A stretch of DNA of 64,000 bases from a virus (IMGVR_UViG_3300021961_008712:64001-128000); one strand, 5' to 3'. Shown: positions 34,081 through 55,974, counted from the stretch's first letter. Notes: generated from the letters alone by a model not told the origin. Program-made: numbers and translations.

Positions 34081-35796
34081 ATGACATTAATGGTAGATAC
34101 CTCAACTTGGGAGGCAGGAAAAGATTATCCAGAATGGATGAACGAAGTTTCATTAGCAACTATCTCTAAAGGATATTTGTTACCTGGAGAAACTCCCCGT
34201 ACAGCATACAGACGTGTAGCAGAAACAGTAGCAAAAAGACTTGATCGACCTGACCTAGCTAATAAATTTTGGCGTTATATGTGGAAGGGTTGGTTGAACT
34301 TAGCCTCACCCGTTTTATCAAACACCGGTACAGATAAAGGATTACCTATCTCTTGTTTCGGTATTGATACTCCTGATTCTATTAGAGGAATTGGCCTTAC
34401 TAACGCTGAGTTAATGAGGCTAACTTCCTTAGGAGGTGGTGTAGGTATTGGACTTTCCAAAATTAGAGGAAGAGGGCAGAAAATTGGCAATGGAGATATT
34501 GGTCAATCTGAAGGAGTAATTCCTTGGGCTAAGATATACGACTCTACTATTATTGCAACTAACCAAGGCGCAGTTCGTAGAGGAGCAGCATCTGTTAACC
34601 TTGATATAGAACACCCAGATATTGAGGAATTCTTACAAATCAGAAGACCTAAAGGAGATCCTAACAGACAGTGTCTCAATCTACACCAATGTGTTACAAT
34701 TGGAGATGACTTTATGCGTAGGTTAGAAATGAGAGACCCTGATGCAATGCAGTTATGGGTAGAAATACTTAAATCTAGAGTAGAGACAGGTGAACCGTAT
34801 ATTATGTATAAGGACACTGTTAATAACGCTAATCCACCTGCATATAAAAGAAATAACCTAGAAGTATCTATGACAAATATCTGTTCTGAGATTACCCTCT
34901 TTACAGATGAAGAACACTCATTTATTTGCTGCTTATCCTCAGTCAACTTAACGAAATGGCATGAATGGAAAAATACAGATCTCATTGAGACAGCGATTTA
35001 TTTTCTTGACGGAGTATTAGAAGAATTTTTAGCTAAAACATCCGGTAGAGATTCGCTAATTAGAGCTCATAGATCTGCTAAAAAAGGAAGAGCGATTGGA
35101 TTAGGTGTTTTAGGATGGCATACATTCCTGCAGAATGAAAGAATACCTTTTACTTCTATTGCTGCTACTTCCTATACTCATCAGATATTTTCTGACATTA
35201 AAAATAAAGCAGAAGCTGCTTCTAGAAAATTAGCAGAAGAATACGGAGAACCAGTATGGTGCAAAGGAACTGGTATGAGAAACTCACATTTGATTGCAGT
35301 TGCTCCTACCGTTACTAACAGTACGATTGCCGGAGGAGTATCAGCTGGTATAGAACCGCTACCCGCAAACGTCTGGACGTTTAATTCCGCTAAAGGTACG
35401 TTTATTCGTAAGAATGAAGCATTAGTTAATTACCTAGAAGAAAGAGGAGCAAATACTGAAGAGGTATGGGATCAGATTATGAAGGATAGAGGATCTATTG
35501 CTAATTTACCCGAAGATGTTATGCCAGCAGAAGATAAACCCATCTTTTTAACATTTGCAGAAATTAATCAACTAGAATTAGTAAAGCAAGCTGGTATTAG
35601 ACAGCAGTATATTGATCAAACTCAATCATTAAACTTGGCTTTTGATCCAACAGATAGTCCTAAGTTTATTAACGAGGTACATCAAGCAGCTTGGAGAGAA
35701 GGAGTAAAGACTCTATATTATTTAAGAACAGATTCTGTAATTAATGGAGATATAGGTAGTAGAACATCTACTGATTGCTTAAGTTGTGATGGATAA
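34081..35796 (+). CDS. nrdA: Ribonucleotide reductase class I alpha subunit (short, no ATP cone)
   Basis: PISCF, TNICSEI, CCLSS, APT, DQTQSLN, KTLYY, C-terminal CLSC. Confidence 0.95.
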   Translation: MTLMVDTSTWEAGKDYPEWMNEVSLATISKGYLLPGETPRTAYRRVAETVAKRLDRPDLANKFWRYMWKGWLNLASPVLSNTGTDKGLPISCFGIDTPDSIRGIGLTNAELMRLTSLGGGVGIGLSKIRGRGQKIGNGDIGQSEGVIPWAKIYDSTIIATNQGAVRRGAASVNLDIEHPDIEEFLQIRRPKGDPNRQCLNLHQCVTIGDDFMRRLEMRDPDAMQLWVEILKSRVETGEPYIMYKDTVNNANPPAYKRNNLEVSMTNICSEITLFTDEEHSFICCLSSVNLTKWHEWKNTDLIETAIYFLDGVLEEFLAKTSGRDSLIRAHRSAKKGRAIGLGVLGWHTFLQNERIPFTSIAATSYTHQIFSDIKNKAEAASRKLAEEYGEPVWCKGTGMRNSHLIAVAPTVTNSTIAGGVSAGIEPLPANVWTFNSAKGTFIRKNEALVNYLEERGANTEEVWDQIMKDRGSIANLPEDVMPAEDKPIFLTFAEINQLELVKQAGIRQQYIDQTQSLNLAFDPTDSPKFINEVHQAAWREGVKTLYYLRTDSVINGDIGSRTSTDCLSCDG

Positions 35797-37163: not shown

Positions 37164-37973
37164 ATGGCAAAAAATGTTGTTGTAAGTCTTTCTGGAGGGA
37201 TGGACTCCTCTACTTTACTACTTAGATGTTTATCTGAGTACGACAATGTAACAGCTTTATCTTTTGATTACGGTCAAAAGCATAGAGTAGAACTTGAAAG
37301 AGCTCAATCTTTAGTAGATTATCTAAATGATAATGTCTATTTTAGAAACGGTGATCAGATTAAGTATCAGGTTATTAAATTAGACGGGTTAGTAAATCTT
37401 CTTAACTCTGCTTTAGTAACCGGAGGTGCTGATGTACCAGAAGGACATTATGAGCAAGATAATATGAAAGCTACAGTAGTACCTAACAGAAACAAAATAT
37501 TTGCTTCTTTAGTTCAAGCAGTTGCTTTATCAGCAGCTAATGCTAATGGAAACAATACAGATATTGCATTAGGTATTCATGCTGGTGATCATGCTATCTA
37601 CCCTGACTGCCGTCAAGAGTTTAGAGATGCAGATGATGCTGCTTTTAGAATAGGTAACTGGGATGCTGAAAAGGTAGGTTACTTTACACCTTATTTAGAA
37701 ACTGATAAGTTTGGTATTCTACAAGATGGTGAAAAATTATGTAAGGATTTACAAATAGAATTCGATGAAGTTTACAAACGTACGAATACTTCTTACAAAC
37801 CTTACCCTTCAGGTAACTCGGATTATAAATCTGCTTCTTCCGTAGAACGTATTGAAGCGTTCATTAAGTTAGGTAGAAAAGATCCAGTTCAGTATGAAGA
37901 TGAGACAGGACCTGTGTCTTGGGAAGTAGCTAAGGCTGCAGTTGAAAAGGTATTAACCGATTACGTAGCTTAA
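37164..37973 (+). CDS. queC: 7-cyano-7-deazaguanine (preQ0) synthase
   Basis: SLSGGMDS PP-loop, FDYGQKH..E, VVPNRN, YPDCR. Confidence 0.92.
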   Translation: MAKNVVVSLSGGMDSSTLLLRCLSEYDNVTALSFDYGQKHRVELERAQSLVDYLNDNVYFRNGDQIKYQVIKLDGLVNLLNSALVTGGADVPEGHYEQDNMKATVVPNRNKIFASLVQAVALSAANANGNNTDIALGIHAGDHAIYPDCRQEFRDADDAAFRIGNWDAEKVGYFTPYLETDKFGILQDGEKLCKDLQIEFDEVYKRTNTSYKPYPSGNSDYKSASSVERIEAFIKLGRKDPVQYEDETGPVSWEVAKAAVEKVLTDYVA

Positions 37974-42300: not shown

Positions 42301-42317
42301 TTATAATAGAAGACAAC

Positions 42318-42348
42318 AGTGTCGTAGCACCACTTTAAAAACACATTT
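42318..42348 (+). ncRNA. Candidate preQ1-I-like riboswitch aptamer (copy 1)
   Basis: AGTG-TCGTAGCAC-CACT-TTAAAAACAC, lying between the promoter and the first ATG of the queD/queE operon. Confidence 0.55.
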
Positions 42349-42600: not shown

Positions 42601-42761
42601 TAGAGGTAGTTAAGCACACTTTAGGAATTTGCGGAGAGCATTGGCATCCTAGTGCACTTACAGTATTAGCTAGCAGTCCATTATTTGTAGCTACAGTTAA
42701 CTACATTAAATGTAAATGCGGCGGATTGTTTAATCATAAAAAAAGTTGTAATAATGAGTAA
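42597..42761 (+). CDS. Small His/Cys-rich hypothetical protein
   Basis: Likely start is ATG 42597 (ATGA overlap): MIEVVKHTLGICGEHWHPS...CKCG...HKKSC. Confidence 0.5.
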   Translation: MIEVVKHTLGICGEHWHPSALTVLASSPLFVATVNYIKCKCGGLFNHKKSCNNE

Positions 42762-43224
42762 ATTTCAATCAACAAAAGTATTTGATGGATTTAGTACCTG
42801 CTTTAGACAATGGAAAGCAGAAGATACTCATTGTAGGTTTCTACATGGGTATGGAGTTTCAATTAAAATTTGGTTCGAAGGTGAATTAGATGAAAGAAAC
42901 TGGGTATGGGACTTTGGCGGTATGAAAAGAGCTAAAGGTAAAATAGACGGTTTATCTCCTAAAGAATGGTTTGAGTATATGTTTGACCATACTGTTATTG
43001 TAGCAGAAGATGATCCGCAATTAGGAAATTATTTCAGAAAAATGGACCGTAACGGTACAATCCAACTGCGTGAAGTACCTGCTACTGGAGCAGAGAAGTT
43101 TGCCGAATTTGTGTACTCAAAAGTTAATCCTTTTATTGAGGAAGAAACTAACGGTAGAGTAACTATTACTAAAGTAGAATTCAGAGAACACGATAAAAAT
43201 TCAGCTATTTATGTCCCTAGGTAG
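42754..43224 (+). CDS. queD: 6-carboxytetrahydropterin synthase (QueD/PTPS family)
   Basis: HCRFLHGY, WVWDFG, FDHT, TGAEKFA, EFREHDKNSA. Confidence 0.85.
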   Translation: MSKFQSTKVFDGFSTCFRQWKAEDTHCRFLHGYGVSIKIWFEGELDERNWVWDFGGMKRAKGKIDGLSPKEWFEYMFDHTVIVAEDDPQLGNYFRKMDRNGTIQLREVPATGAEKFAEFVYSKVNPFIEEETNGRVTITKVEFREHDKNSAIYVPR

Positions 43225-43987
43225 AATAGAAGATTATAATAAAGTACTACCCATCGTTGAACTTTATACTGCAGTACAATCTGAAGGTTCTAGACAAGGT
43301 TATCCGACTATTGTCATAAGAACAACAGGATGTACTCATAGATGCTACTTTGGAGAAGGTGGCTGGTGTGATAGCTGGTATACTTCTATTCACCCAGAAA
43401 AAGGTAGATATACCTTTAATGATATCATAGATATGTACGATAAAAATCCTCATATCTCAGAAATGATGTTAACCGGTGGTTCTCCTTCAATGCACGGCAA
43501 ATTAGTAAACGAATTAACACACCTAGCACATGAAAGAGGTATTTTTATCACTATGGAGAACGAAGGTAGTCATTACCTTGAGACCGATTATCCTATTGAT
43601 CTCCTGTCTATTAGCCCTAAGTTCTCTAATAGTGTTCCTATTATTGGCGTATCCACACCTCAAGGTGGTATAGTAGATGATAGAATGGTTAAACAGCATA
43701 ATAAGTATAGATTAAATTTAGACGCTATTAGAAAGTCAATTGCGTATCATAAGGACTACCATATTAAACCGGTATTAGATAAAGACTTAACTATATACAG
43801 CGAGGTTAGGCAGTTTTTAGATAGCCTAAATATTCCTAATGAAAAAGTCTGGATGATGCCAGCTGGAGATACAAGAGTTGCATTATTTGAAACTTATCCT
43901 GTAGTTATGGATTTTTGTAGAGATGAAGGTTACAGATTTACAGGAAGAGCACACATAATGGCATTTGATACACAACGAGAAGTATGA
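43211..43987 (+). CDS. queE: 7-carboxy-7-deazaguanine synthase (radical SAM)
   Basis: VQSEG, RTTGCTHRC...WCDS, LTGGSP, ENEG, SISPK, W.MP.G; adjacent to queD. Confidence 0.88.
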   Translation: MSLGRIEDYNKVLPIVELYTAVQSEGSRQGYPTIVIRTTGCTHRCYFGEGGWCDSWYTSIHPEKGRYTFNDIIDMYDKNPHISEMMLTGGSPSMHGKLVNELTHLAHERGIFITMENEGSHYLETDYPIDLLSISPKFSNSVPIIGVSTPQGGIVDDRMVKQHNKYRLNLDAIRKSIAYHKDYHIKPVLDKDLTIYSEVRQFLDSLNIPNEKVWMMPAGDTRVALFETYPVVMDFCRDEGYRFTGRAHIMAFDTQREV

Positions 43988-44238
43988 GTTTTATTATAGG
44001 ATCAAAATGTATTGGTACTAAAGATGGAGCCTGTATTGCAGTCTGTCCAGTAGACTGTATTGCAGAAGGAGAAGAATCTATGTACATTAATCCTGAAGTA
44101 TGCATTGACTGTGGTGCATGTGTCCCGGAATGCCCTGTAGAAGCTATATTTGATACAGAAGAACAAGCAATCGCAGCCGGAGAATTAGAAGCAGTAAAAA
44201 AGAATTATCAATTTTATGGTTTAACATACAAACAATGA
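43984..44238 (+). CDS. Ferredoxin (dicluster, 7Fe-type)
   Basis: CIGTKDGACIAVCPVDCI and CIDCGACVPECPVEAI. Confidence 0.9.
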   Translation: MSFIIGSKCIGTKDGACIAVCPVDCIAEGEESMYINPEVCIDCGACVPECPVEAIFDTEEQAIAAGELEAVKKNYQFYGLTYKQ

Positions 44239-44426
44239 CAGCAGAAGAATTTGTTATTTGGTTTAGAGGTTTTGTCAACGGTGCTCACCACTTTAATATT
44301 ACTCCACAGCAATGGGAGTACTTAAAGGAAAAACTAGATGAAGTAGAAAGTAAAAATACTCTAGCAGATTACACTGCCGGTAATTGGTTTATTAATAACA
44401 CATGGGAGAAAACAAAATCTACTTAA
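44235..44426 (+). CDS. Small hypothetical protein
   Basis: MTAEEFVIWFRGF...TPQQWEYLKEKL; overlaps both neighbours. Confidence 0.55.
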   Translation: MTAEEFVIWFRGFVNGAHHFNITPQQWEYLKEKLDEVESKNTLADYTAGNWFINNTWEKTKST

Positions 44427-44806
44427 CTTGGGAGGATGTCTATGAGCTATTAGACAAAATTCATGAACAAACAAAAGGAGAAATCAAATATGTAACCGGT
44501 ATTCCTAGAGGAGGAATTCTTTTAGCAGTACTTTATTCACATAGATTTAATGTACAGTACTTTGAATTTAAAAGTAATCATTATCATGATTTGTTAATTA
44601 TAGACGATATAGCTGATACAGGAGATACTTTTTTAAACTTAAAAGAAGACATAAAACTACCAAAAACAGCAGCACTTCATTATAAATCCACTTCTAAATT
44701 TAAACCTGATTTCTTCGGTAAGGAAGTACCAGGAGATTTCGGTTGGATAGTCTACCCTTGGGAAAAAAAAGATTCAAAACCAATTCAAGACTATTTGGAT
44801 AATTGA
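44402..44806 (+). CDS. Type I phosphoribosyltransferase (xanthine-guanine PRTase-like)
   Basis: GIPRGG, PRPP-binding LLIIDDIADTGDT, C-terminal WIVYPWE. Confidence 0.85.
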   Translation: MGENKIYLTWEDVYELLDKIHEQTKGEIKYVTGIPRGGILLAVLYSHRFNVQYFEFKSNHYHDLLIIDDIADTGDTFLNLKEDIKLPKTAALHYKSTSKFKPDFFGKEVPGDFGWIVYPWEKKDSKPIQDYLDN

Positions 44807-44824
44807 GCAAAAATTCGTATATTA
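44795..44824 (+). promoter_or_regulatory. Promoter TTG-N20-TATATTA
   Basis: Conserved motif upstream of folE. Confidence 0.6.
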
Positions 44825-44834
44825 AGATATAGAT

Positions 44835-44870
44835 AATGTGTCGCAGTACCACTTTAAAAACAAAAAATTA
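44835..44870 (+). ncRNA. Candidate preQ1-I-like riboswitch aptamer (copy 2)
   Basis: GTG-TCGCAGTAC-CAC-TTTAAAAACAAAAAA between the promoter and the folE ATG (44871). Confidence 0.55.
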
Positions 44871-45542
44871 ATGAATAACATTGAATTAGAATTAGTAAAA
44901 GAAGGATTTGCAAATGGTGTAGCCCCTGGGTTTCCTCTTACAGAAGTACAGAAAAGTGAAATGATTGAAGAAGCAGCATATGCTTATGGAAAGTTTCTAG
45001 ATGCTTTAGGATGTGACTGGAGAAATGACCCTAACTCAGCTGATACTCCTCGTAGAGTAGCTAAAGCATATGTAAGAGATTTATGGAGAGGACGTTATGA
45101 TGCAATGACTGAAATTACAGCATTCCCTTCTGATGGGTACAACGGTATCGTACAGGAGTCAAATATACCGGTGACGTCAATGTGTAGCCACCACCACCAA
45201 ACAATAGGTGGTCGTGTGAGTATTGCCTATGTACCGTCTGAGAATGGTAAAGTAGTAGGTCTGTCTAAACTCAACCGTATCGTCGAACACTTTGGACGAA
45301 GAGGTGCTATACAAGAGCAACTTACTGTAGCCATTCATAATGCAATCGATAAGATTTGTGAAGGTAACCTTGGAGTAGCTGTAATGATTGATGCAACTCA
45401 TAACTGTGTAAGTTGTAGAGGAGTTAAGCACCAAGGAGCTTCAATGCAGACAGCTAAACTATCAGGTTGCTTTCTTAACGAAGATTCTGCAAGAGCTGAG
45501 TTTTATAAAAACATAGAATTAGCAGGTAAATGTAGATATTAG
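44871..45542 (+). CDS. folE: GTP cyclohydrolase I
   Basis: DTPRRVAK, SMCSHH, GLSKLNR, IQEQLT, HNCVSCRGV; likely start is ATG 44871. Confidence 0.95.
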   Translation: MNNIELELVKEGFANGVAPGFPLTEVQKSEMIEEAAYAYGKFLDALGCDWRNDPNSADTPRRVAKAYVRDLWRGRYDAMTEITAFPSDGYNGIVQESNIPVTSMCSHHHQTIGGRVSIAYVPSENGKVVGLSKLNRIVEHFGRRGAIQEQLTVAIHNAIDKICEGNLGVAVMIDATHNCVSCRGVKHQGASMQTAKLSGCFLNEDSARAEFYKNIELAGKCRY

Positions 45543-45551
45543 GAGTATATT

Positions 45552-46277
45552 ATGTTTGAATGGATAAAAGAAAAATATGCGCACCTTGATAAAGACACTG
45601 TTCGCTTTAGAGCCGGAAGCCCAAACCCTATTATAAGGTTTGAAAATTTTCTTCCGGAAACAGAAGCATACAAACTCTATTATGAAAGCCAAAGTATACC
45701 AAATGTATACTGGAAAACTTTTGATAGAAATGGAAGTCATATGAAGGAGTTAAATAAAGTTGAACTTATGCCTATAGCATTCAATATTATTAACTACCTG
45801 AATAGCGGACCATTTTTAACTTACTTAGAGACATTAACAGGTATCGAAAGACTTATCCCAGATCCCCATTTAATAGGAGCAGGATACAGTAAGAGCTTTA
45901 ATGGTGATACCTTAAAGATACATACAGATTTTAACTGGAATAACGAATTAAGCCTTCATCGAGCATTAAGTTTAATAATCTATATTACACCAGAATGGAA
46001 GGCTGAATATGGAGGAGCATTGAGCTTTCTCGACAGAGATAGACAGCAAGAAATTTTTAAAGCTGATTGTTTATTTAATACAGCGTTAATTTGGAGACAT
46101 GGTAAATATGCTTTTCATGGATACCCAGATCCAATTCAATGTCCATCTCATTTGTCGAGAAATACTTTGAGACTGTTTTATTTTGTAAGTACCTCAGAAC
46201 ACAACCCAGATGATCCACCACACCGTAGTTTATACTGGTATGATGAAAAATTAAATGAACCTATAGATTTAAAATAA
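45552..46277 (+). CDS. 2OG-Fe(II) oxygenase
   Basis: LKIHTDFN, YGGAL, FHGYPDP, R.TLRLFY. Confidence 0.8.
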   Translation: MFEWIKEKYAHLDKDTVRFRAGSPNPIIRFENFLPETEAYKLYYESQSIPNVYWKTFDRNGSHMKELNKVELMPIAFNIINYLNSGPFLTYLETLTGIERLIPDPHLIGAGYSKSFNGDTLKIHTDFNWNNELSLHRALSLIIYITPEWKAEYGGALSFLDRDRQQEIFKADCLFNTALIWRHGKYAFHGYPDPIQCPSHLSRNTLRLFYFVSTSEHNPDDPPHRSLYWYDEKLNEPIDLK

Positions 46278-46278
46278 A

Positions 46279-47448
46279 ATGATTTACGTAAATTTTGGAA
46301 AGAACTCGAGTGAAGACCATAAATGGTATTGGGCAGATAAAGGAGCTAAAGAATATACAGAATGGACCTCTGCTGACAAAAACCCTATTTTCTATTATGA
46401 TAGACATGATTTAGCTATGAGAAATCTCGAGTTTAGAGACTTTGTTACAGAAGAAATGTGGGAACATTTTAGAACTAACGAAGAAGCTCTAATAGTAATT
46501 AATTTTGCTGATGATTATATTAACTCAGCAGACTTAGATAGATTTGCCTCTGATATCAAGCTTAGAAATGTAGATAGTTCTAGAGTTATTTTTGTATTGA
46601 TGGATCAAAATTTCATTGAGTTTGTAGTTAATGGACTAGCAGCTAGAGGAATAAATAATATTTCAGCTGATTACATTAATATTCTCATGAAAAGGGTACC
46701 TCCTAGGTATAATGATGAAGCAATAAAGACTCATAAATTCTCAATATTTAGTAGAAATTATTGGGATTGGAGGTTTGATATTTATTTAGAACTTCTTAAA
46801 AGAGGAGTATTAGCAAATACTAATTTCTCTTTTCATAATTACAATCCTTATACAAATGAATTATACGATGAGGAAAGACTAAAAGCTGATGCGATTAAAA
46901 AGGGACACGTAATAACCCAAGAAGTAGAAGAATTTATTAAAGGTGTACCCTACGATTTGGGGAGCAGAAGTAACAAATTCTCTGATGTTATTTACGAAGC
47001 ATTAAACACATCAGACTACCATATAGTTGTTGAATCTCATTTTGATCCTTTTTTAGGAATAAATTATGAGTTTGCTAAAAAAGACTATAATGAATTAACA
47101 ATCTCTCCTGGATTTATCACAGAAAAAGTATGGAAACCTATTGCGTGTAAAAGACCGTTTTTTATTGCAGCAACTCCATTTATTTTGAGAGATTTGAAAA
47201 AGTTAGGATATAAAACTTTCGGAGAATTTATTGATGAATCCTATGATGAAATCGTAGATGATAAACAAAGATTACTTGCTCTAACTTCTGAAATTGAACG
47301 CATAAATAATCTTCCAACCGAAGAGTATAATCAGCTTCTAGCTTCTTTGCAAAATATAGTAGAGTATAACCATAGTGTATATATTAACCAGTGGGAAAAT
47401 GTAAATTTTACTAAGTACCCTTTTCTACATGGAATAGTTGTACTTTAA
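46279..47448 (+). CDS. Glycosyltransferase-like protein (paralog)
   Basis: ITEKVWKPIACKRPFF; LGYKTFGEFIDESYD. Confidence 0.55.
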   Translation: MIYVNFGKNSSEDHKWYWADKGAKEYTEWTSADKNPIFYYDRHDLAMRNLEFRDFVTEEMWEHFRTNEEALIVINFADDYINSADLDRFASDIKLRNVDSSRVIFVLMDQNFIEFVVNGLAARGINNISADYINILMKRVPPRYNDEAIKTHKFSIFSRNYWDWRFDIYLELLKRGVLANTNFSFHNYNPYTNELYDEERLKADAIKKGHVITQEVEEFIKGVPYDLGSRSNKFSDVIYEALNTSDYHIVVESHFDPFLGINYEFAKKDYNELTISPGFITEKVWKPIACKRPFFIAATPFILRDLKKLGYKTFGEFIDESYDEIVDDKQRLLALTSEIERINNLPTEEYNQLLASLQNIVEYNHSVYINQWENVNFTKYPFLHGIVVL

Positions 47449-47467
47449 AATTATTTTTATTATATTA
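47438..47467 (+). promoter_or_regulatory. Promoter TTG-N20-TATATTA
   Basis: Conserved motif and spacing. Confidence 0.55.
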
Positions 47468-47472
47468 TAGAT

Positions 47473-47871
47473 ATGGAAATAGATATTAGACCTTGGGGTA
47501 GATATGAAGTGTTGCTAGATGCTGAATATACTAAAGTAAAGTTGATTACTGTAGAACCTCAAAAAAAACTATCGTACCAATCTCATGAAAAGAGACAGGA
47601 ATATTGGACTGTTGTTCAAGGTACCTTAACTGTAATTCTTGACGATAAAACTATTTCTGTACCTACCGGTGATTCTATTCACATTCCTTTAGGCTCTAAA
47701 CATAGAGCTTGGAATAAGACAGAAACTCCTGTTCAATTTGTAGAAGTACAAACAGGAACTTATTTTGGAGAAGATGATATCGTAAGATATGAAGATGATT
47801 TTGGAAGAGCCGAGTTAGAACATTTAAGAGATGGAAATTATATTGGCGGATTAACAATGCCTAAAAGATAA
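47473..47871 (+). CDS. Cupin, mannose-6-phosphate isomerase type II C-terminal domain
   Basis: RPWGRYEVL, LSYQSHEKRQEYW, EVQTGTYFGEDDIVRYEDD. Confidence 0.88.
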   Translation: MEIDIRPWGRYEVLLDAEYTKVKLITVEPQKKLSYQSHEKRQEYWTVVQGTLTVILDDKTISVPTGDSIHIPLGSKHRAWNKTETPVQFVEVQTGTYFGEDDIVRYEDDFGRAELEHLRDGNYIGGLTMPKR

Positions 47872-47875
47872 AAAA

Positions 47876-48409
47876 ATGGGTAAACAACTAACATTATTTA
47901 CAGAAGAAGAAATGGGACCTTGTAGCAAGCATGATAACGAGTATGTACCCTTTGTTTCAGAAGTAGAAGAATTCAATGCCATATTTGGCAAACCTAATAA
48001 CTATGAACCAACAATCCCAGCAAAAGCCGAGTGGGAGTTCGTATATAACTTTATACTCGAAGAATTGGAAGAATATAGACAAGCTTGCGAAGACGGAAAC
48101 ATCGTGGAAGTTTTGGATGCTTTGTGTGATATTACTTATGTTTCCCTTGGGAACGGTGTTATGTTACACGGCCTTAAGGATAAGATATGGCCAGCGTATC
48201 AAGAGGTTCAAGCGAGTAATCTTAGTAAAGCTTGCTCTACTGAAGAAGAAGCCGCACAGACTGTCACCGTACGAGCTAAAGAACAGGGTGAGCCTTGTCA
48301 TTATGAAAAAGTTAATGGGAAGTTCATTGTCTACAGAACAAGAGATAGAAAAGTAATGAAATCAGTTAATTACTTTAGACCAGATTTAACTAAGTACTTT
48401 AATGGTTAA
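47876..48409 (+). CDS. MazG-like all-alpha NTP pyrophosphohydrolase
   Basis: EELEEY...EVLDALCDITYV, EVQASNLSK, DRKVMKS..YFRPDL. Confidence 0.8.
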   Translation: MGKQLTLFTEEEMGPCSKHDNEYVPFVSEVEEFNAIFGKPNNYEPTIPAKAEWEFVYNFILEELEEYRQACEDGNIVEVLDALCDITYVSLGNGVMLHGLKDKIWPAYQEVQASNLSKACSTEEEAAQTVTVRAKEQGEPCHYEKVNGKFIVYRTRDRKVMKSVNYFRPDLTKYFNG

Positions 48410-48602
48410 TTTAGAAGATCATATAGTAGTAATTGAAGGTAAAAAGTACGTACCTTATGAACTTGCTGTAGAAGCTTATACTCAAAAGCATGAGTATGAA
48501 GAAAATCAAGCTAAATTTGATGCAGCAATGAAATTAATAGAGACCTCAGTTCAAGATCTTTCACAAGCTTTAAACATCAGTAAACTAACAGGTGAAGAAT
48601 AA
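48402..48602 (+). CDS. Small hypothetical protein
   Basis: 66-aa ORF overlapping its neighbours. Confidence 0.55.
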   Translation: MVNLEDHIVVIEGKKYVPYELAVEAYTQKHEYEENQAKFDAAMKLIETSVQDLSQALNISKLTGEE

Positions 48603-49143
48603 ACCTATATTAATTTTTGGAGATAGTTTTAGTTCCAACTGGGGCAAAGATTCAAGAAGAAGTTGGGTAGATATTATTTCGAAGAAATTTGATGTTGTTA
48701 ATGTCGCGGAAGCAGGAGTAGGAGAATATAAAATTTTTTCTCAAATAAAGTCGTTAGATCTGAATAATTTTTCGTATATTATAGGTAATCATACGTCACA
48801 TTCTCGTGTGCATTCTAGACAGTCAATTCACAATACCGTAATACATGGTAATTGTGATTTACTTTATCTAGACAGTATGCACTTAAAAGAAGCAAGATGG
48901 TTTTTTGAAAATGTGTATGATGATGATTATTTTAAATTTACTTATGAACTAATAAGGGATAAGATTAATAGTAAATTACAAGGTTATAGAAGGTTTATTT
49001 TTGACCCTTTTTATTCAGAATATAAAGACTCAGTAAGTTTTGTAAATAAGTGGAAATTTGATTCTAATAATAAAAATCACTTTGATGCAAAAACGAATAT
49101 TGAGATAGCAGAATTAATAAAAAATAAAATAGTTTATGGTTAG
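48592..49143 (+). CDS. SGNH-like protein
   Basis: IFGDSFS, NVAEAGVG, C-terminal NHF...N...AE. Confidence 0.55.
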   Translation: MKNKPILIFGDSFSSNWGKDSRRSWVDIISKKFDVVNVAEAGVGEYKIFSQIKSLDLNNFSYIIGNHTSHSRVHSRQSIHNTVIHGNCDLLYLDSMHLKEARWFFENVYDDDYFKFTYELIRDKINSKLQGYRRFIFDPFYSEYKDSVSFVNKWKFDSNNKNHFDAKTNIEIAELIKNKIVYG

Positions 49144-49957
49144 AATAGCTCACGAGAGTCCTAAAAGCATCTTTGATACTGTACAGAAGTTTACAGATTA
49201 CGATTATGCATTAGTTCATCTATTTGAAGAAGATGAAGAGTACTTAAATATGTTTAAAAAAGCTGTAAGTAGAGGGAGAGAAGTAATTCTCGATAACTCT
49301 ATTTTTGAGTTAGAAGAAGCTTTTGATGCAGATAGATTTGCATACTGGATTAAAGAATTGAGACCTACTTGGTATATTGTTCCGGATGCATTAGAGGATT
49401 CTAAGCGAACTATGAATCAAATGGCTGAATGGAATATGAAATACTCAAACGTTCCAGGTAAGAAAATTGGAGTTGTTCAGGGTAAGACATATGAGCAAAT
49501 TAAAGCTTGCTACATCTTTATGGATGAAATCGCAAAGGTAGACATGATTGCTATCTCTTTTGACTATTCGTATTATACTGAATCTGTCCCTCATCCTAAC
49601 AAATACGTAAGTTGGATGCTTGGGAGAGTTAAACTACTCGGAGACTTAATGAGAGACGGTGTGATAAACGAGAAGAAGCCTCATCACCTATTAGGATGTG
49701 GATTACCTCAAGAATTCCAATACTATAAACACTCAGACTATAATTGGCTGTATTCCTTAGATACCTCTAATCCGGTAGTACACGGTATTAAGGGTATAGA
49801 GTATAAAGACCAAGGACTTTGGAGTAAAGAATCGCAGAAACTATTTGAGATGATTAATAGTGAAGTAAGTATGGATCAACTTCATCTCATTAAGTATAAT
49901 ATTCAAAAATTTAGATGGTTTACAAATGGGCAGACGGACGTGGATAGCATTTTTTAG
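49136..49957 (+). CDS. dpdA: TGT-fold 7-deazaguanine insertion enzyme (DpdA family, probably DpdA3-like)
   Basis: ILDNSIFE, IVPDAL, GVVQG, HHLLG and SLDTS match the TGT/DpdA barrel pattern; embedded among que genes. Confidence 0.7.
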   Translation: MVRIAHESPKSIFDTVQKFTDYDYALVHLFEEDEEYLNMFKKAVSRGREVILDNSIFELEEAFDADRFAYWIKELRPTWYIVPDALEDSKRTMNQMAEWNMKYSNVPGKKIGVVQGKTYEQIKACYIFMDEIAKVDMIAISFDYSYYTESVPHPNKYVSWMLGRVKLLGDLMRDGVINEKKPHHLLGCGLPQEFQYYKHSDYNWLYSLDTSNPVVHGIKGIEYKDQGLWSKESQKLFEMINSEVSMDQLHLIKYNIQKFRWFTNGQTDVDSIF

Positions 49958-50468
49958 TCAGACAGGCGGAGAAATTGCTGACCTATCAGAAAAGCTTGGA
50001 TTTTGGCCTGATAGAATTATTACAAATGAAAGACCAGATCATCTCAGAACTGTAGATCCTAGAATTGAGAAAAGAGGGTACTTTACTTTTAGTAATAAAC
50101 CAGACCTAGAAGAATATGAAGATCTTCTGGTTTACTTTCCTGGAGCATTAATAACTCTTCACGGTTGGTTGAGAATTATGCCTTCTGAAATCTGTGAGAA
50201 ATTTAGCGTGTTTAATGGGCATCCTGGCTTAATAACATTATATCCAGAACTTAAAGGTAAGGATCCTCAAATTAGAGCGTATGAAGGAAAGTATGAAAAA
50301 ATAGGAGCTGTTTTACATAAAGTTACAGCAGGTGTAGATGAAGGTCCTATAATTGCGGAAGATTATTTTCTTAACGAAGGGTTGGAGCTTAACGATATTT
50401 TTCGTAAATTAAAAGATATCAGTTTATTTATGTGGTTTGTATACTTAACAACGGTTTTAAATGATTAA
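49926..50468 (+). CDS. PurN-like formyltransferase (candidate preQ1 formyltransferase, DpdN-like)
   Basis: FFSQTG, LHGWLRI, NGHPG, LHKVTAGVDEGPII; overlaps dpdA. Confidence 0.8.
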   Translation: MGRRTWIAFFSQTGGEIADLSEKLGFWPDRIITNERPDHLRTVDPRIEKRGYFTFSNKPDLEEYEDLLVYFPGALITLHGWLRIMPSEICEKFSVFNGHPGLITLYPELKGKDPQIRAYEGKYEKIGAVLHKVTAGVDEGPIIAEDYFLNEGLELNDIFRKLKDISLFMWFVYLTTVLND

Positions 50469-50643
50469 ATGTATGGATAAAGAATTTTATTTAGTAAGAA
50501 AAAACGAAAGCAATGCATTTCAAAGATTAATGACGTTCTTTTTAGAACAAAATAAAAAATATGGTGCTGATTTCGGAGTAGCAGGAATGTACAATACTTT
50601 AAATAGGTTTTATGATAAAAAGAATAGCATTAGTAGGGGCTAG
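50461..50643 (+). CDS. Small hypothetical protein
   Basis: 60-aa ORF filling the gap between formyltransferase and kinase. Confidence 0.45.
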   Translation: MIKCMDKEFYLVRKNESNAFQRLMTFFLEQNKKYGADFGVAGMYNTLNRFYDKKNSISRG

Positions 50644-51133
50644 TAGTACAGGTAAGACTACTGTCTATGAACTACTTAAAAATAAATTACCTAAATATGA
50701 ATTCGTAAACGAATCTACTAGAACTGTAGGTAGTTACGGATTTCCTATTAATGAAGAAGGTACTGATGCTACTCAACTGGCTATAAGTAGTTTTCATTTA
50801 GAAGCTTTACTGCAACCTTATAATCTAGTATTGGATAGGTGTTATATGGATTTACTCGTATATTCTAAGTTTATGGATAAATTATCTGTAAAGACATATA
50901 ACTATATTGAAGATATTTGGAATAGAGTTAAAGGTGAATATACTCACTATATCTACTTTCCTATTGAGTTCGAATCAGTAGATGACGGAGTAAGAAGTGT
51001 TAACGAAGAATGGAGAACTAAAATTGATGATGAATTTAAAGCTGTACTAGAAGGAGTTAGACAGCCTTACTTAACCGTTACTGGTTCTCCTATGCAAAGA
51101 GTTGAACAAATATTAAAATTTATAAATGTATAG
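50612..51133 (+). CDS. P-loop nucleoside/nucleotide kinase-like protein (AAA_28/NadR-like)
   Basis: GASSTGKTT, ESTR, VLDRCYMD, DDGVR. Confidence 0.75.
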   Translation: MIKRIALVGASSTGKTTVYELLKNKLPKYEFVNESTRTVGSYGFPINEEGTDATQLAISSFHLEALLQPYNLVLDRCYMDLLVYSKFMDKLSVKTYNYIEDIWNRVKGEYTHYIYFPIEFESVDDGVRSVNEEWRTKIDDEFKAVLEGVRQPYLTVTGSPMQRVEQILKFINV

Positions 51134-51491
51134 ATACGAAGCAAAACTAGTCAGAGTAGTAGATGGAGATACTGCCGACGTAATGATCGATCTTGGCTTT
51201 GACGTTTGGACTAAAGCTAGATTAAGATTTAATGGAGTAGATACTTGGGAAAGTAGAACCCGAAATTTAGAAGAAAAAGAAAAAGGTTTACTTGCTAAAG
51301 AATTTACTGAATCCTACCTAACACGTAATGATGGAAAATTTCAGATTCAATCATTTGGAGTAGGTAAGTACGGTAGAGTGTTAGCAGATATATACATTAA
51401 GGGTGAGGAAAAATCTCTAAATCAACTACTAATAGAAAATGGTCATGCGTATTTTTACGATGGCGGTACAAAACAAATTTTTAAAGGTTAA
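51126..51491 (+). CDS. Thermonuclease (SNase) family nuclease
   Basis: RVVDGDT, R..GVDTWE, GKYGRVLA, N..LIENGHA. Confidence 0.88.
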   Translation: MYRYEAKLVRVVDGDTADVMIDLGFDVWTKARLRFNGVDTWESRTRNLEEKEKGLLAKEFTESYLTRNDGKFQIQSFGVGKYGRVLADIYIKGEEKSLNQLLIENGHAYFYDGGTKQIFKG

Positions 51492-51493
51492 TT

Positions 51494-52402
51494 ATGGAAG
51501 AAGTAAAGAATTATCAAGACGTTGTAGCAATTGCATCTAAACACTTAGGTAAGGTAGGCGGTGATGGGTATAAGGATACTTATGATCCTTCACTACTAGT
51601 TAAAATTCCTCGTATCTTAAATAGAGAAGGATATGGTCTTTCCGGAAAAGAATTTGTAGGAGTTGATGTATGGAATGCTTACGAAGTATCAGCTATTACT
51701 ACTAAAGGTCAACCTGTTGCTGGTATGCTTAAAATCGTATGTCCCGCGAATTCGGAATTTCACGTAGAATCTAAGTCTATAAAATTGTATTTAAACTCTT
51801 TTAATATGACGCAGATTGGTAGTACTGCTGCTGACTGTATTACCGGTATTGAAGCTAGAGTAGAGAGAGACTTAAGAGAACTTTTAGAAGCAGACGTTAC
51901 AGCAAGATTCTTTACCTCAGAAATGGAATTTGAAAGTCTAACTTTCCAGGGATACGATCCTTTAGATCAAATAACTAACTTAGATGCTATAGACTTTACA
52001 GCCTTTAAATCTGATGCTTCTCAACTAGATGTTGAAGAGCATTCATCTAGTACCGAAATAAAGTACTCCTCTAATTTACTTAGATCAAATTGTAGAGTTA
52101 CTAATCAACCGGATTGGGGTGATGTGTTTATTCGAATGGAGGGTAAAAATATTCCCACACCAGAATCAGTAGCTAAGTATATTGTTTCTCATAGAACAGT
52201 TAGTCACTTCCATGAGGAGATATGTGAAATGATTTTTAAACATTTGATGGATGCTTGTAACCCTGATCAGTTAATGGTGGCTTGTTTATATACTCGAAGA
52301 GGAGGTATTGATATTAATCCTATTAGAGCTACACACTCATTATATATACCGGACTTCTTTACTGAGCCTCTATTTACTATTAAGAAGACCCTTAGACAAT
52401 AA
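51494..52402 (+). CDS. queF: NADPH-dependent preQ0 reductase (bimodular type)
   Basis: DVWNAYEVS, VESKSIKLYLNSFN, LLRSNCRVTNQPDWG, FHEEICE, YTRRGGIDINP. Confidence 0.93.
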   Translation: MEEVKNYQDVVAIASKHLGKVGGDGYKDTYDPSLLVKIPRILNREGYGLSGKEFVGVDVWNAYEVSAITTKGQPVAGMLKIVCPANSEFHVESKSIKLYLNSFNMTQIGSTAADCITGIEARVERDLRELLEADVTARFFTSEMEFESLTFQGYDPLDQITNLDAIDFTAFKSDASQLDVEEHSSSTEIKYSSNLLRSNCRVTNQPDWGDVFIRMEGKNIPTPESVAKYIVSHRTVSHFHEEICEMIFKHLMDACNPDQLMVACLYTRRGGIDINPIRATHSLYIPDFFTEPLFTIKKTLRQ

Positions 52403-53649: not shown

Positions 53650-55974
53650 ATGCAATTAGAAAAAAAGTACTACACAGTCCAAGATAGCGAAACTTTAAAG
53701 CTACTATTCCAGCATATTCAAGATTCAGATGTTATAGCAGTCGATACGGAGACTACCGGACTTAATCCTAGGAAAGATAAAATTGTAGGTTGGTCTGTAT
53801 CTGGAGAAGAAGGTATAGGTTTCTATCTTCCTACCTTAGTCTGGAACTTTCAGAAAGATGAATTAGAACTGCAGACTATTGATGATACTTCTACTGAAGT
53901 AATTTCTAAAAATTTACTAAAAGCACTGATTGGAAAAAAGCTAGTATTTCACAACGCTTCTTTCGACGTTCAGTTTATTAATAACTATTTTGGTATTAAC
54001 TTACTACCTAGTGTTTGGGTTGATACTGGATTACTTGTTCATACAGTCTATGAAGAAGGAGCCTTCGGGTTTGGTAGTCCTTTCGGACTAAAATCTATTG
54101 CTATCATGAATCAGGAAGCTCTTGGCCTGAATGTGCAAGAAGCAGCTAACCAAGAGCAGTTGGAACTGAAAGAAAGTATTAAGAAAAATGGTGGTTCTGT
54201 CACTAAAGAAAGTTTTGAAATTTATAAAGCTGATCTGGATATTCTTAGCAAGTATGCTTCAGCTGATACTGATCTTACCCTTCGTATTTGTAATCTTTAT
54301 TTGGGTAAGCTTAGAGACGAAGGTTTGGAAGAATTCTTCTTCAACGAGGAAGTAATGCCAATCTACCGTGAGGTAACTGTACCTATGGAAGCTTACGGTG
54401 TAGATCTTGATATGGAGTTATTAGCTAAAACTTATGCTGAGATTACCGAGGATCAAGAAAAGAATAAAGAGATTGTAATGAAGTCTCTATTAGCTCTTCC
54501 GGAAGTTAAACAGTGGGTAGTAGATACTGCTATGACTAACTACCCTGTATCCCATAAAGGTAATTGGGCTCAAAAATTAGTTGAGAGATACTCTCTACCT
54601 TTACCTAAATCAGAGAAAACAGGCAAGTATACCCTTACTCAAAAAGCTATAGAAGAGTTAGAAGACTCTCCTCAAAAACAGTTTCTTCTTACCGGTGAAA
54701 ACCATTATATTAGTGAAGTAGAGCAAGCTAGAATTTCTATGAGTCTATGGAAAGAGCAAAATGATGGAGAATATCTCAATATTCAATCTAAAGCTCACTT
54801 AGGTGAAATAGTATTTAAATACATGGGTATTAAACCTAAAGTATCTGGTGCTAATACCAAGTCTGGTAGAGATAAGTTTGATATGGATATGGTAGAAGAG
54901 CTAGCTAAAGAGTATCCTTGGGCAGAAAATCTTCGTATCTACAATAAGCTCTTAAAAATAAAGTCTACTTATATTGAACGTTTTGTTAACGGTAATGAGG
55001 ACGGTAAATACTACTTCTACTTTAAGCAGAACGGTACTGTATCAGGTCGATATGGATCAGATGCACAACAGCTTCCTAAACCACTTGAACCAGGTGAAGA
55101 TGCTCCTGTAATAGAGAAGTATGTTAATATTGTTAGAGCATTCCTGATTGCAGGTAAGGGTAGAAAAGTAATTGATTGTGATTATGAATCTCTAGAACCT
55201 CACTGCTTTGCCTCAGTATCCGGTGATGAAAAACTACAAGAGATTTTTAACAATAATTACGACTTCTATTCGTATGTAGCAATACAGACTGAAAAACTTG
55301 AAGGTGTCTCTGCTGATAAATCTGCTCCTAACTACTTAAAGAAGCTAGACCCAGTTAAAAGAAATAAAGCTAAAGCTTATTCGTTAGGGGTTGCATACGG
55401 TATGGAAGCTTATGCTCTCAAAATGACGTTAGATGTTGATCAGAAAACTGCTGAAGGATTAATTAAAGGTTACTTGGATGGGTTTCCTGGTCTTGCTAAA
55501 TGGAGAGAAAATTCTAGACGCCAAGTTAAGGATGAAGGATATATTAAAAACTATGTAGGACGCGTTCGACACTTACCTAGAGTGAAGCAAATTTACTCTA
55601 AGTTTGGTGATAGAATGATGGACTGGAGATTTAGAAAAGAACTAGAGCTACAATACGGTAAAGATCAAGTAATGCAAGCATATCGAGACTATCGAAACGG
55701 ACTTAATAACTGCTTAAACTTTCAGTTGCAGTCTCTTGCCGCTGCGGTTGTTAACCGTGCTGCTCTTGCTATAAACAGAAAAGCAAAAGAACTAGGAGTA
55801 GATGCTTGTGTACAAGCTCAGGTACATGACCAGTTGGTTATTAACGTTAGAGAAGATCAAGCAGAAATGTTTGCTCCTTATGTTAAAGATCTAATGGAAA
55901 GTACCACACAGCTTCCTGGAGTTACTTTGAAAGCACCACCTGAAATTTCAATTAACTGGAGAGATGGACACTAA
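53650..55974 (+). CDS. polA: Family-A DNA polymerase with 3'-5' exonuclease domain
   Basis: DTETTG, FHNASFD, YASAD; TVSGR; DYESLEPH; KAKAYSLGVAYG; QVHDQL. Confidence 0.93.
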   Translation: MQLEKKYYTVQDSETLKLLFQHIQDSDVIAVDTETTGLNPRKDKIVGWSVSGEEGIGFYLPTLVWNFQKDELELQTIDDTSTEVISKNLLKALIGKKLVFHNASFDVQFINNYFGINLLPSVWVDTGLLVHTVYEEGAFGFGSPFGLKSIAIMNQEALGLNVQEAANQEQLELKESIKKNGGSVTKESFEIYKADLDILSKYASADTDLTLRICNLYLGKLRDEGLEEFFFNEEVMPIYREVTVPMEAYGVDLDMELLAKTYAEITEDQEKNKEIVMKSLLALPEVKQWVVDTAMTNYPVSHKGNWAQKLVERYSLPLPKSEKTGKYTLTQKAIEELEDSPQKQFLLTGENHYISEVEQARISMSLWKEQNDGEYLNIQSKAHLGEIVFKYMGIKPKVSGANTKSGRDKFDMDMVEELAKEYPWAENLRIYNKLLKIKSTYIERFVNGNEDGKYYFYFKQNGTVSGRYGSDAQQLPKPLEPGEDAPVIEKYVNIVRAFLIAGKGRKVIDCDYESLEPHCFASVSGDEKLQEIFNNNYDFYSYVAIQTEKLEGVSADKSAPNYLKKLDPVKRNKAKAYSLGVAYGMEAYALKMTLDVDQKTAEGLIKGYLDGFPGLAKWRENSRRQVKDEGYIKNYVGRVRHLPRVKQIYSKFGDRMMDWRFRKELELQYGKDQVMQAYRDYRNGLNNCLNFQLQSLAAAVVNRAALAINRKAKELGVDACVQAQVHDQLVINVREDQAEMFAPYVKDLMESTTQLPGVTLKAPPEISINWRDGH

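Follow-up and report, generated by a model that had tools for sequence, protein, structure and literature searches.

Whether guanine is replaced by a 7-deazaguanine in the finished DNA or on nucleotides before replication is the question raised by the que/dpd gene cluster of the virus IMGVR_UViG_3300021961_008712. The window investigated here is a stretch of 64,000 nucleotides, bases 64001-128000 of the complete 169,750-bp (169.75-kb) virus record, with positions counted from its first base. From protein families and identities, the cluster is identified as a formyl-preQ1 system of the type of Flavobacterium phage immuto, the phage in which DpdA3 and DpdN were defined and in which every G of the DNA is replaced by formyl-preQ1 (fdPreQ1) (Cui, Hutinet et al. 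2023, PMC10516641). In the window, DpdA3, which has the tRNA-guanine transglycosylase (TGT) fold, is accompanied by a phosphoribosyltransferase (PRTase), a P-loop kinase, and a MazG-like pyrophosphohydrolase. Based on the content and order of these genes, the modified G may be made on free (deoxy)nucleotides or nucleosides before replication, with DpdA3 acting on monomers; the chances of this are judged to be about even.

An earlier note on this DNA had proposed a nucleotide-level route and had placed the PRTase between queE and folE, the MazG-like gene upstream of dpdA, and the kinase downstream of the dpdA and formyltransferase genes and upstream of queF. All of these placements are borne out by ORF calls, in which all genes from 42.7 to 56 kb are on the + strand, and by identification of the genes with Pfam, PHROGs, and NCBIfam. 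The genes on which the argument turns are:

44402..44806, + strand: 134-aa Gpt-like 6-oxopurine PRTase (PF00156, 30.4 bits, cut-off 26.3)
47876..48409, + strand: MazG-like NTP pyrophosphohydrolase, all-alpha (PRA-PH, 37.3 bits, cut-off 21.3; phrog_671)
49136..49957, + strand: DpdA3, minimal TGT-fold transglycosylase (76% identity with immuto DpdA3)
49926..50468, + strand: DpdN, PurN-like formyltransferase (PF00551, 34.7 bits; 52% identity with immuto DpdN)
50612..51133, + strand: P-loop kinase (AAA_28, 65 bits)

The PRTase gene follows QueE, a ferredoxin gene, and a 63-aa ORF and precedes FolE, the MazG-like gene is the third gene upstream of DpdA3, separated from it by ORFs of 66 aa and 183 aa, and a staphylococcal-nuclease-like (SNase-like) gene comes between the kinase and QueF. 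Of the route itself, the part that stands is the linkage of kinase and hydrolase to DpdA3, with the swapping of hydrolase folds and the kinase fusions, whereas the PRTase is not supported as the enzyme that installs the base.

It is proposed that the MazG-like pyrophosphatase would cleave dGTP to dGMP and pyrophosphate, which would both remove the canonical triphosphate and supply the acceptor. DpdA3 would swap guanine for preQ1 on this monomer (dGMP, or dG where the lineage has an HD hydrolase), and DpdN is predicted from its sequence to formylate the aminomethyl group of preQ1. The product, a modified deoxynucleoside or deoxynucleotide, would be phosphorylated by the AAA_28 kinase, with the host NDP kinase completing the triphosphate, and polymerised by the family A DNA polymerase of the phage (PolA). 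The PRTase would return the released guanine to GMP, and then GTP, for FolE.

Kinases and hydrolases beside DpdA3

The DpdA3 family comprises 1,522 clusters at 50% identity (E <= 1e-3) and is present at no fewer than 593 IMG/VR loci. DpdA3 genes of about 190 loci (186) were grouped into 23 lineages at 60% identity, 22 of which had scorable flanks, and the neighbours were classified by iterated hidden Markov models (HMMs) and Pfam. In 13 of the 22 lineages, an AAA_28 kinase is found no more than three genes away from DpdA3, and three further lineages (L105, L108, and phiST, CGPG_00066) have an AAA_18-type kinase within this distance; three DpdA3 lineages have a dNMP kinase (DNMK). In the lineage of the window, with 104 loci, MazG is found at 98, the kinase at 96, and the PRTase at 89.

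When the 118 ORFs of 80 aa or more that lie up to three genes from DpdA3 in the 22 lineage representatives were searched with Pfam, the commonest family was AAA_28 (13 ORFs), followed by Formyl_trans_N (11), QueF (9), and FolE (7). The controls were 73 ORFs within five genes of DpdA1 or DpdA2 in nine lineages (9g, Iggy, RHEph04, Nadezda, phi38:2, Dp-1, Flasso, and two IMG/VR contigs). None of the 73 was a kinase, PRTase, MazG, HD, or NUDIX protein; two were ParB_N proteins. By Fisher's exact test, p is 0.0036 for AAA_28 and 0.00025 for any kinase, values that overstate the independence of the lineages, which are related and have partly inherited their gene order. The co-occurrence with DpdA3 that the earlier note had put forward for checking is therefore seen for the kinase and the NTP hydrolase, which go with DpdA3 across divergent lineages and not with DpdA1/2.

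Records of isolated phages, 50,697 in all, were searched with five queries:

DpdA3: 23 records (immuto 4, CP220-like Campylobacter phages 14, phiST-like Cellulophaga phages 5)
PRTase: 13 records (9 DpdA3 phages, plus 2 Brevundimonas phages)
Kinase: 116 records (immuto 4, Campylobacter 17, Streptomyces 89, Bacteroides 5, Rhodococcus 1)
MazG: 218 records (phages of many kinds)
Classical DpdA1/2: 185 records (ten commonest genera including Escherichia, Pseudomonas, Vibrio, Rhizobium, and Mycobacterium)

None of the ten commonest DpdA1/2 genera is in the kinase list nor, by phage type, in the PRTase list. A scan of viral contigs with the DpdA2 of phi38:2 found no relatives.

Gene order within the lineages also links DpdA3 to these functions. 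In CP220, DpdA3 (gp056) is between gp055, a fusion of an HD phosphohydrolase and an AAA_33 kinase, and gp057, which is homologous to the window kinase. In phiST, FolE is followed by a MazG-like gene, DpdL, CGPG_00066, and DpdA3; CGPG_00066 contains GEICSGKD, which resembles a P-loop, and shares homology with the kinase part of the DpdL::AAA_18 fusions. These fusions, of the decarboxylase DpdL with the kinase, occur in two phiST-like lineages with the order FolE, PRTase, DCD-like, DpdL::kinase, and DpdA3. In one phiST-like lineage, a gene for an ATP-dependent DNA ligase lies between DpdL::kinase and DpdA3 (L107:8503-9627 / L108). The slot upstream of DpdA3 is filled by unrelated hydrolase folds, which are MazG (window, phiST, L135), HD (CP220 gp055), and NUDIX (P0210, in the order NUDIX, DpdA3, AAA_28). 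On another contig, QueD, QueE, and DpdA3 (hhalign 99.85%) are followed by an AAA_28::FolE2 fusion, a third case, with DpdL::AAA_18 and HD::AAA_33, of a kinase domain fused to a pathway enzyme. A 205-aa family (f11) was rejected as a hidden kinase; its start, MC[AS]I.GS, is like that of an N-terminal-cysteine amidotransferase, and it lacks a P-loop.

The linkage of kinase and hydrolase, the swapping of folds, and the kinase fusions are what a nucleotide-pool route predicts and are poorly explained by exchange at the DNA level alone. Pure recycling of guanine does not explain the kinase, as it is present in CP220, where there is no PRTase anywhere in the complete genome. Other complete base replacements, 5-hydroxymethylcytosine and 2-aminoadenine (dZ), go through the dNTP pool. 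In immuto, phiST, and CP220, 100% of G is replaced (Cui 2023, PMC10516641), with immuto the one phage for which complete replacement by fdPreQ1 has been demonstrated; a monomer-level route would explain this as well as the kinase, the swapped hydrolases, and the contrast with DpdA1/2.

From its model, the kinase is a small-molecule nucleoside or nucleotide kinase of the deoxynucleoside kinase (dNK), NadR ribosylnicotinamide kinase, or thymidylate kinase (TMPK) fold. The family profile has NadR ribosylnicotinamide kinase (6gye, 3.5e-6) as its best match in the PDB, then dNK and TMPK, and the Foldseek matches of the model (pLDDT 93) are kinases for deoxyadenosine, deoxyguanosine, and deoxycytidine, plus NadR at TM 0.80. 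It is the sole AAA_28 gene in the phage genome. Homologues with about 30% identity are present in Streptomyces phage Jay2Jay (L003) and 88 other Streptomyces records, in a replication/recombination module; the Jay2Jay locus has no que genes in the 14.6 kb shown and has a MazG nearby.

In the MazG-like protein, the metal-binding residues are intact, with E62, E63, E66, E78, D81, and D85 (EExxE...ExxD...D) invariant. Single-sequence PDB searches gave no match for this protein or for the kinase, and the MazG profile reached only E ~1 to DR2231 and a MazG-related protein, with no link to MazZ. The protein begins MGKQLTLF (47882-47899); a clamp-binding-like QLxLF is within 20 residues of the N-terminus in 48 of 104 MazG homologues, in a variable tail that is absent from immuto.

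DpdA3 of the window is 76% identical to that of immuto, 42% to CP220, and 25% to phiST. Its AlphaFold model (pLDDT 96.7) is a bare TIM barrel with a TGT as best Foldseek match (E 6e-8, TM 0.63), and in alignment its HLLG...S-x-D-T-S-N-P motif falls on the region of bacterial DpdA 7ui4 around the nucleophile. On this model, DpdA3 is predicted to be a competent transglycosylase that exchanges guanine for a 7-deazaguanine base. Of 141 DpdN homologues, 118 keep an N-terminal SQTG[ST]E loop (SQTGGE in the window), which we take, as a lead only, to resemble the phosphate-binding SGxGSN loop of PurN. In long forms of DpdA3, the additional part is DpdN, NUMOD3, a domain that by eye is GNAT-like, or unknown. 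DpdA3-DpdN fusions (447 aa) are among the DpdA3 family representatives, and the representatives P0169, P0216, P0197, and P0122 carry fusions. In P0197 the C-terminal domain is GNAT-like by eye (RKRGLAT motif), hinting at N-acetyl-preQ1, and DpdA3 is also fused to an unknown 317-aa N-terminal domain. No DpdA3-kinase fusion was found among the top 150 representatives or the 'longer' matches.

Possible exchange in the finished DNA

The published explanation, with salvage added, is that the polymerase uses dGTP in copying the DNA, after which DpdA3 swaps every G in the duplex for preQ1 and DpdN formylates it in the DNA. The PRTase, perhaps with the kinase as a GMP kinase, would recycle guanine to GTP for FolE, and MazG would serve in pool sanitation. 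This is a serious possibility, although a doubtful one.

A number of points speak for it and weigh against exchange on monomers. The authors who defined DpdA3 concluded that insertion is a post-replication event, the proposal published for all 7-deazaguanine modifications, and the PRTase and kinase of immuto go unmentioned there (Cui 2023, PMC10516641). DpdA3 keeps the fold and the catalytic Asp motif of TGT and DpdA, the substrate of bacterial DpdA is dsDNA, and that of all family members characterised so far is RNA or DNA; exchange on monomers asks of a TGT-fold enzyme an activity never shown in that family. There is no structural argument to exclude DNA as the substrate of DpdA3, which neither length nor isoelectric point (pI) sets apart from the DNA-acting DpdA1/2. 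As a proxy for DNA binding, pI or net charge does not discriminate (median pI 5.47 for DpdA3 against 5.5-6.6 for DpdA1/2), and short length and missing insertions were dropped as arguments against a DNA substrate, since the DNA-acting DpdA2 of phi38:2 is only 240 aa. Six or seven DpdA3 lineages have no kinase within the DNA fetched. The AAA_28::FolE2 fusion fits a role in GTP supply equally well, the DpdA3-DpdN fusions would also suit enzymes that act in turn on DNA, and the MazG homologues are spread over 218 records of many kinds of phage. Likewise, the DCD/dUTPase part of the hydrolase evidence is weak. Such genes are present in 10 DpdA3 lineages, mostly at the distal end of the operon (QueC, Gat-like, DCD); they were rejected as specific partners because Dp-1-type controls also carry a dUTPase, the only match of our own HMMs over 148 kb of control loci.

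There are nonetheless observations for which post-replicative exchange gives no reason, namely a dedicated kinase beside DpdA3 in 13-16 of the 22 lineages, including phages without a PRTase, and the swapping of MazG, HD, and NUDIX in the upstream slot. The clusters of DNA-acting DpdA1/2 do not have these genes and sometimes have ParB/DpdB-like partners instead. The DpdA1, DpdA2, and DpdA4 systems that have been measured replace at most about 30% of G (PMC10516641). No DpdA3 activity was seen in the E. coli DNA assay, in which DpdA3 with DpdL gave no 2′-deoxy-7-deazaguanosine (dDG), and a 7-amido-7-deazaguanine (ADG) nucleoside was noted in the cytoplasm of CP220-infected cells (Cui 2023, PMC10516641). 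For Campylobacter phages, a modified dGTP was earlier proposed or left open (Hutinet 2019, PMC6884629). Among the papers searched, none was found that assigns roles to the PRTase, the kinase, and the other accessory genes.

The PRTase as a probable guanine recycler

The PRTase most likely turns the guanine released by each exchange into GMP for FolE, judging from its gene neighbours and residues. Three lines of evidence support this role: it adjoins FolE in seven of the eight PRTase-bearing lineages, its types are canonical and keep the Asp that contacts N7, and CP220 does without it. The first two of these also speak for post-replicative exchange with salvage.

The best solved relatives of the PRTase are the 6-oxopurine PRTases 4trb, 4z1o, 1vdm, and E. 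coli xanthine-guanine PRTase (XGPRT); the window protein has 134 aa and XGPRT 152 aa. There is no equivalog-level match to a xanthine/guanine PRTase (NF006613, 35.6 bits against a cut-off of 138). The type I 6-oxopurine PRTase signature is present, DDIADTG being the motif that binds phosphoribosyl pyrophosphate (PRPP), with the catalytic Asp, and the protein carries the motif LLIIDDIADTGDT, the Asp of which is equivalent to D137 of human hypoxanthine-guanine PRTase (HGPRT). In HGPRT, the Asp of this motif contacts N7 of the purine, an atom that a 7-deaza base does not have. The motif [DE]DxxD[TS]G is kept in all 103 PRTases beside DpdA3, including the N7-contacting Asp. Different DpdA3 lineages have acquired different PRTases, of a Gpt-like and an Hpt-like type.

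The suggestion of the earlier note that the PRTase might install the deazaguanine with PRPP is weakened by the FolE adjacency, by the N7-contacting Asp in all 103, and by the absence of a PRTase from CP220. It would belong to a route in which base and PRPP are joined first, the kinase makes the diphosphate, the phage ribonucleotide reductase (RNR) and polymerisation follow, and DpdA3 is secondary, for example in polishing residual G. TubE, a purine-type PRTase, joins 7-carboxy-7-deazaguanine (CDG) to PRPP, with decarboxylation then on the nucleotide (PMC6112128), and since such an enzyme can accept CDG the route is retained as a minor rival. The succession of PRTase, DCD-like enzyme, and DpdL::kinase in phiST-like loci, the PRTase with dNMP kinase and RNR in phiST and Brevundimonas phages, and the window phage's own RNR are in its favour. 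However, it is very improbable, since CP220 replaces 100% of its G with 2′-deoxy-7-amido-7-deazaguanosine (dADG) without a PRTase, many DpdA3-kinase lineages show none nearby, DpdA3 and not the PRTase is the universal gene, both recruited types are canonical 6-oxopurine enzymes with an N7-contacting Asp that a 7-deaza base could not use, and the PRTase adjoins FolE and not the late pathway genes. The remaining probability goes to other or mixed mechanisms.

In Brevundimonas phage vB_BpoS-MaInes, an unannotated 266-aa DpdA3-like protein (MAINES_00850, L110:10337-11137; hhalign 95%) is encoded between QueE and DNA polymerase, and RNR, dNMP kinase, FolE, and PRTase are in a row. Both Brevundimonas phages matched by the PRTase query have such a DpdA3-like gene that is missing from the annotation. 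Based on this combination, the Brevundimonas phages probably carry a 7-deazaguanine genome.

The remaining cluster and related systems

[quoted passage not shown] The RNR and polymerase that the earlier note had ascribed to the phage itself are indeed present, as a PF02867 match and a PolA ORF. The other features of the region are:

34351..35724, + strand: RNR large subunit (PF02867; match, not ORF; record 98351-99724)
37176..37868, + strand: QueC, preQ0 synthase (PF06508, 133 bits; match; record 101176-101868)
42754..43224, + strand: QueD, 6-carboxytetrahydropterin (CPH4) synthase (PF01242, 52 bits; 71% identity with immuto QueD)
43211..43987, + strand: QueE, CDG synthase, radical SAM (72% identity with immuto QueE; Radical_SAM match under the Pfam cut-off)
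43984..44238, + strand: 2x[4Fe-4S] ferredoxin (Fer4 families), possibly the reductant for QueE
44235-44426, + strand: 63-aa ORF
44838..45542, + strand: FolE, GTP cyclohydrolase I (PF01227, 149 bits)
45552-46277, + strand: 2-oxoglutarate (2OG)-Fe(II) oxygenase, 241 aa
46279-47448, + strand: 389-aa protein without a family
47473-47871, + strand: cupin, ManC C-terminal type
48402-48602 and 48592-49143, + strand: ORFs of 66 aa and 183 aa, between the MazG-like gene and DpdA3
50461-50643, + strand: 60-aa ORF
51126-51491, + strand: SNase-like gene, between the kinase and QueF, found in only a subset of related loci
51494..52402, + strand: QueF, preQ0 to preQ1 (QueF_N 102 bits, QueF 67 bits)
53650..55974, + strand: PolA, 774 aa (68% identity with immuto gp72, annotated 'DNA polymerase family A')

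The oxygenase, 389-aa, cupin, and 183-aa genes (45552-47871, 48592-49143) are insertions in the que/dpd cluster, and the oxygenase, 389-aa, and 183-aa genes were not found in immuto or any of 80 close IMG/VR loci. The Atlas model of the 389-aa protein is similar to viral proteins that occur in fusion with domains of an epimerase/GDP-mannose dehydratase or a methyltransferase. These four genes may form a module for a sugar-type or further modification.

Two near-identical elements of about 28 nt, GTGTCG[T/C]AG[C/T]ACCACTTTAAAAACA, are present at about 42315-42345 and 44836-44866, just upstream of ATG 42349 and ATG 44871. They had been described as riboswitch-like, a label that is not upheld, as neither matches any Rfam family, preQ1 classes I-III included (66-nt searches, E <= 10). 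Part of the loop presumably resembles the class I preQ1 aptamer, a likeness without Rfam support. Possible identities of the elements are a leader or promoter-proximal motif of the phage and a divergent aptamer. The second overlaps the GTG at 44838, the listed start of FolE, and ends ahead of the ATG at 44871; counted from this GTG, the FolE Pfam match starts only at residue 50, and translation probably begins at the ATG at 44871.

Like the window, immuto encodes QueD, QueE, PRTase, FolE, an NTP pyrophosphatase, DpdA3, DpdN, a 'thymidylate kinase', QueF, and PolA, with protein identities of 47% to 78% and nucleotide similarity detectable only at dpdA (77%). Unlike immuto, the window adds the 2OG oxygenase, the 389-aa protein, the cupin, the 183-aa protein, the ferredoxin, and the SNase-like gene.

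The dZ phages S-2L (a cyanophage) and PhiVC8 (Vibrio) have PurZ, MazZ, and DatZ. In these, a MazG-type enzyme makes the dNMP, a dedicated enzyme converts it, and DatZ, an HD protein, destroys the canonical dNTP; kinases then rebuild the triphosphate, which the phage polymerase incorporates, giving 100% replacement. The pathway proposed for the window shares this logic, although its converting enzyme would be a TGT-fold base-exchange enzyme in place of a PurA homologue. No sequence relationship of window proteins to MazZ or DatZ was detected.

In the synthesis of tubercidin and toyocamycin, the TubE/ToyH PRTase is followed by the decarboxylase TubF, acting on the nucleotide, and the Nudix protein TubG (PMC6112128). 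As in the proposed phage pathway, FolE/QueD/QueE products are taken to free nucleotides, with a PRTase, a decarboxylase, and a Nudix hydrolase. The products there are ribonucleoside antibiotics, however, with no DpdA and no incorporation into DNA, and the PRTases of the phages resemble ordinary Gpt/Hpt enzymes.

Bacterial DpdA/DpdB and phage DpdA1/DpdA2 share with DpdA3 the TIM-barrel transglycosylase, the catalytic Asp motif, and bases from the preQ0 pathway. Their substrate is dsDNA, which they modify in a sequence-selective way, with replacement of no more than about 30% of G (PMC10164549, PMC6884629). Bacterial DpdA differs from DpdA3 in having DNA-binding insertions and a ParB-like ATPase partner, and the DpdA1/DpdA2 clusters in having no kinase, PRTase, or MazG.

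DpdA3 may be the first TGT-fold transglycosylase to act on free deoxynucleotides or nucleosides, building with the hydrolase and kinase a 7-deazaguanine dNTP and excluding dGTP. Such a pre-replicative pathway, contrary to the published model, is considered as likely to be right as wrong. The post-replicative model for DpdA3 has homology as its sole basis, and the enzyme failed in the only heterologous test; the conserved hydrolase-DpdA3-kinase module names concrete enzymes and substrates for testing. Should the nucleotide-level route fail, the module would still be a guanine-recycling loop in support of a very costly modification. If the route is correct, it would account for the 100% replacement in DpdA3 phages, unlike DpdA1/2 phages, and would offer a possible enzymatic route to the 7-substituted 7-deaza-dGTPs used in sequencing and synthetic biology. 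The pathway would be widespread, spanning no fewer than 1,500 protein clusters at 50% identity, monomers would join the substrates of the TGT superfamily, and the accepted mechanism would change for a whole class of phage DNA modifications.

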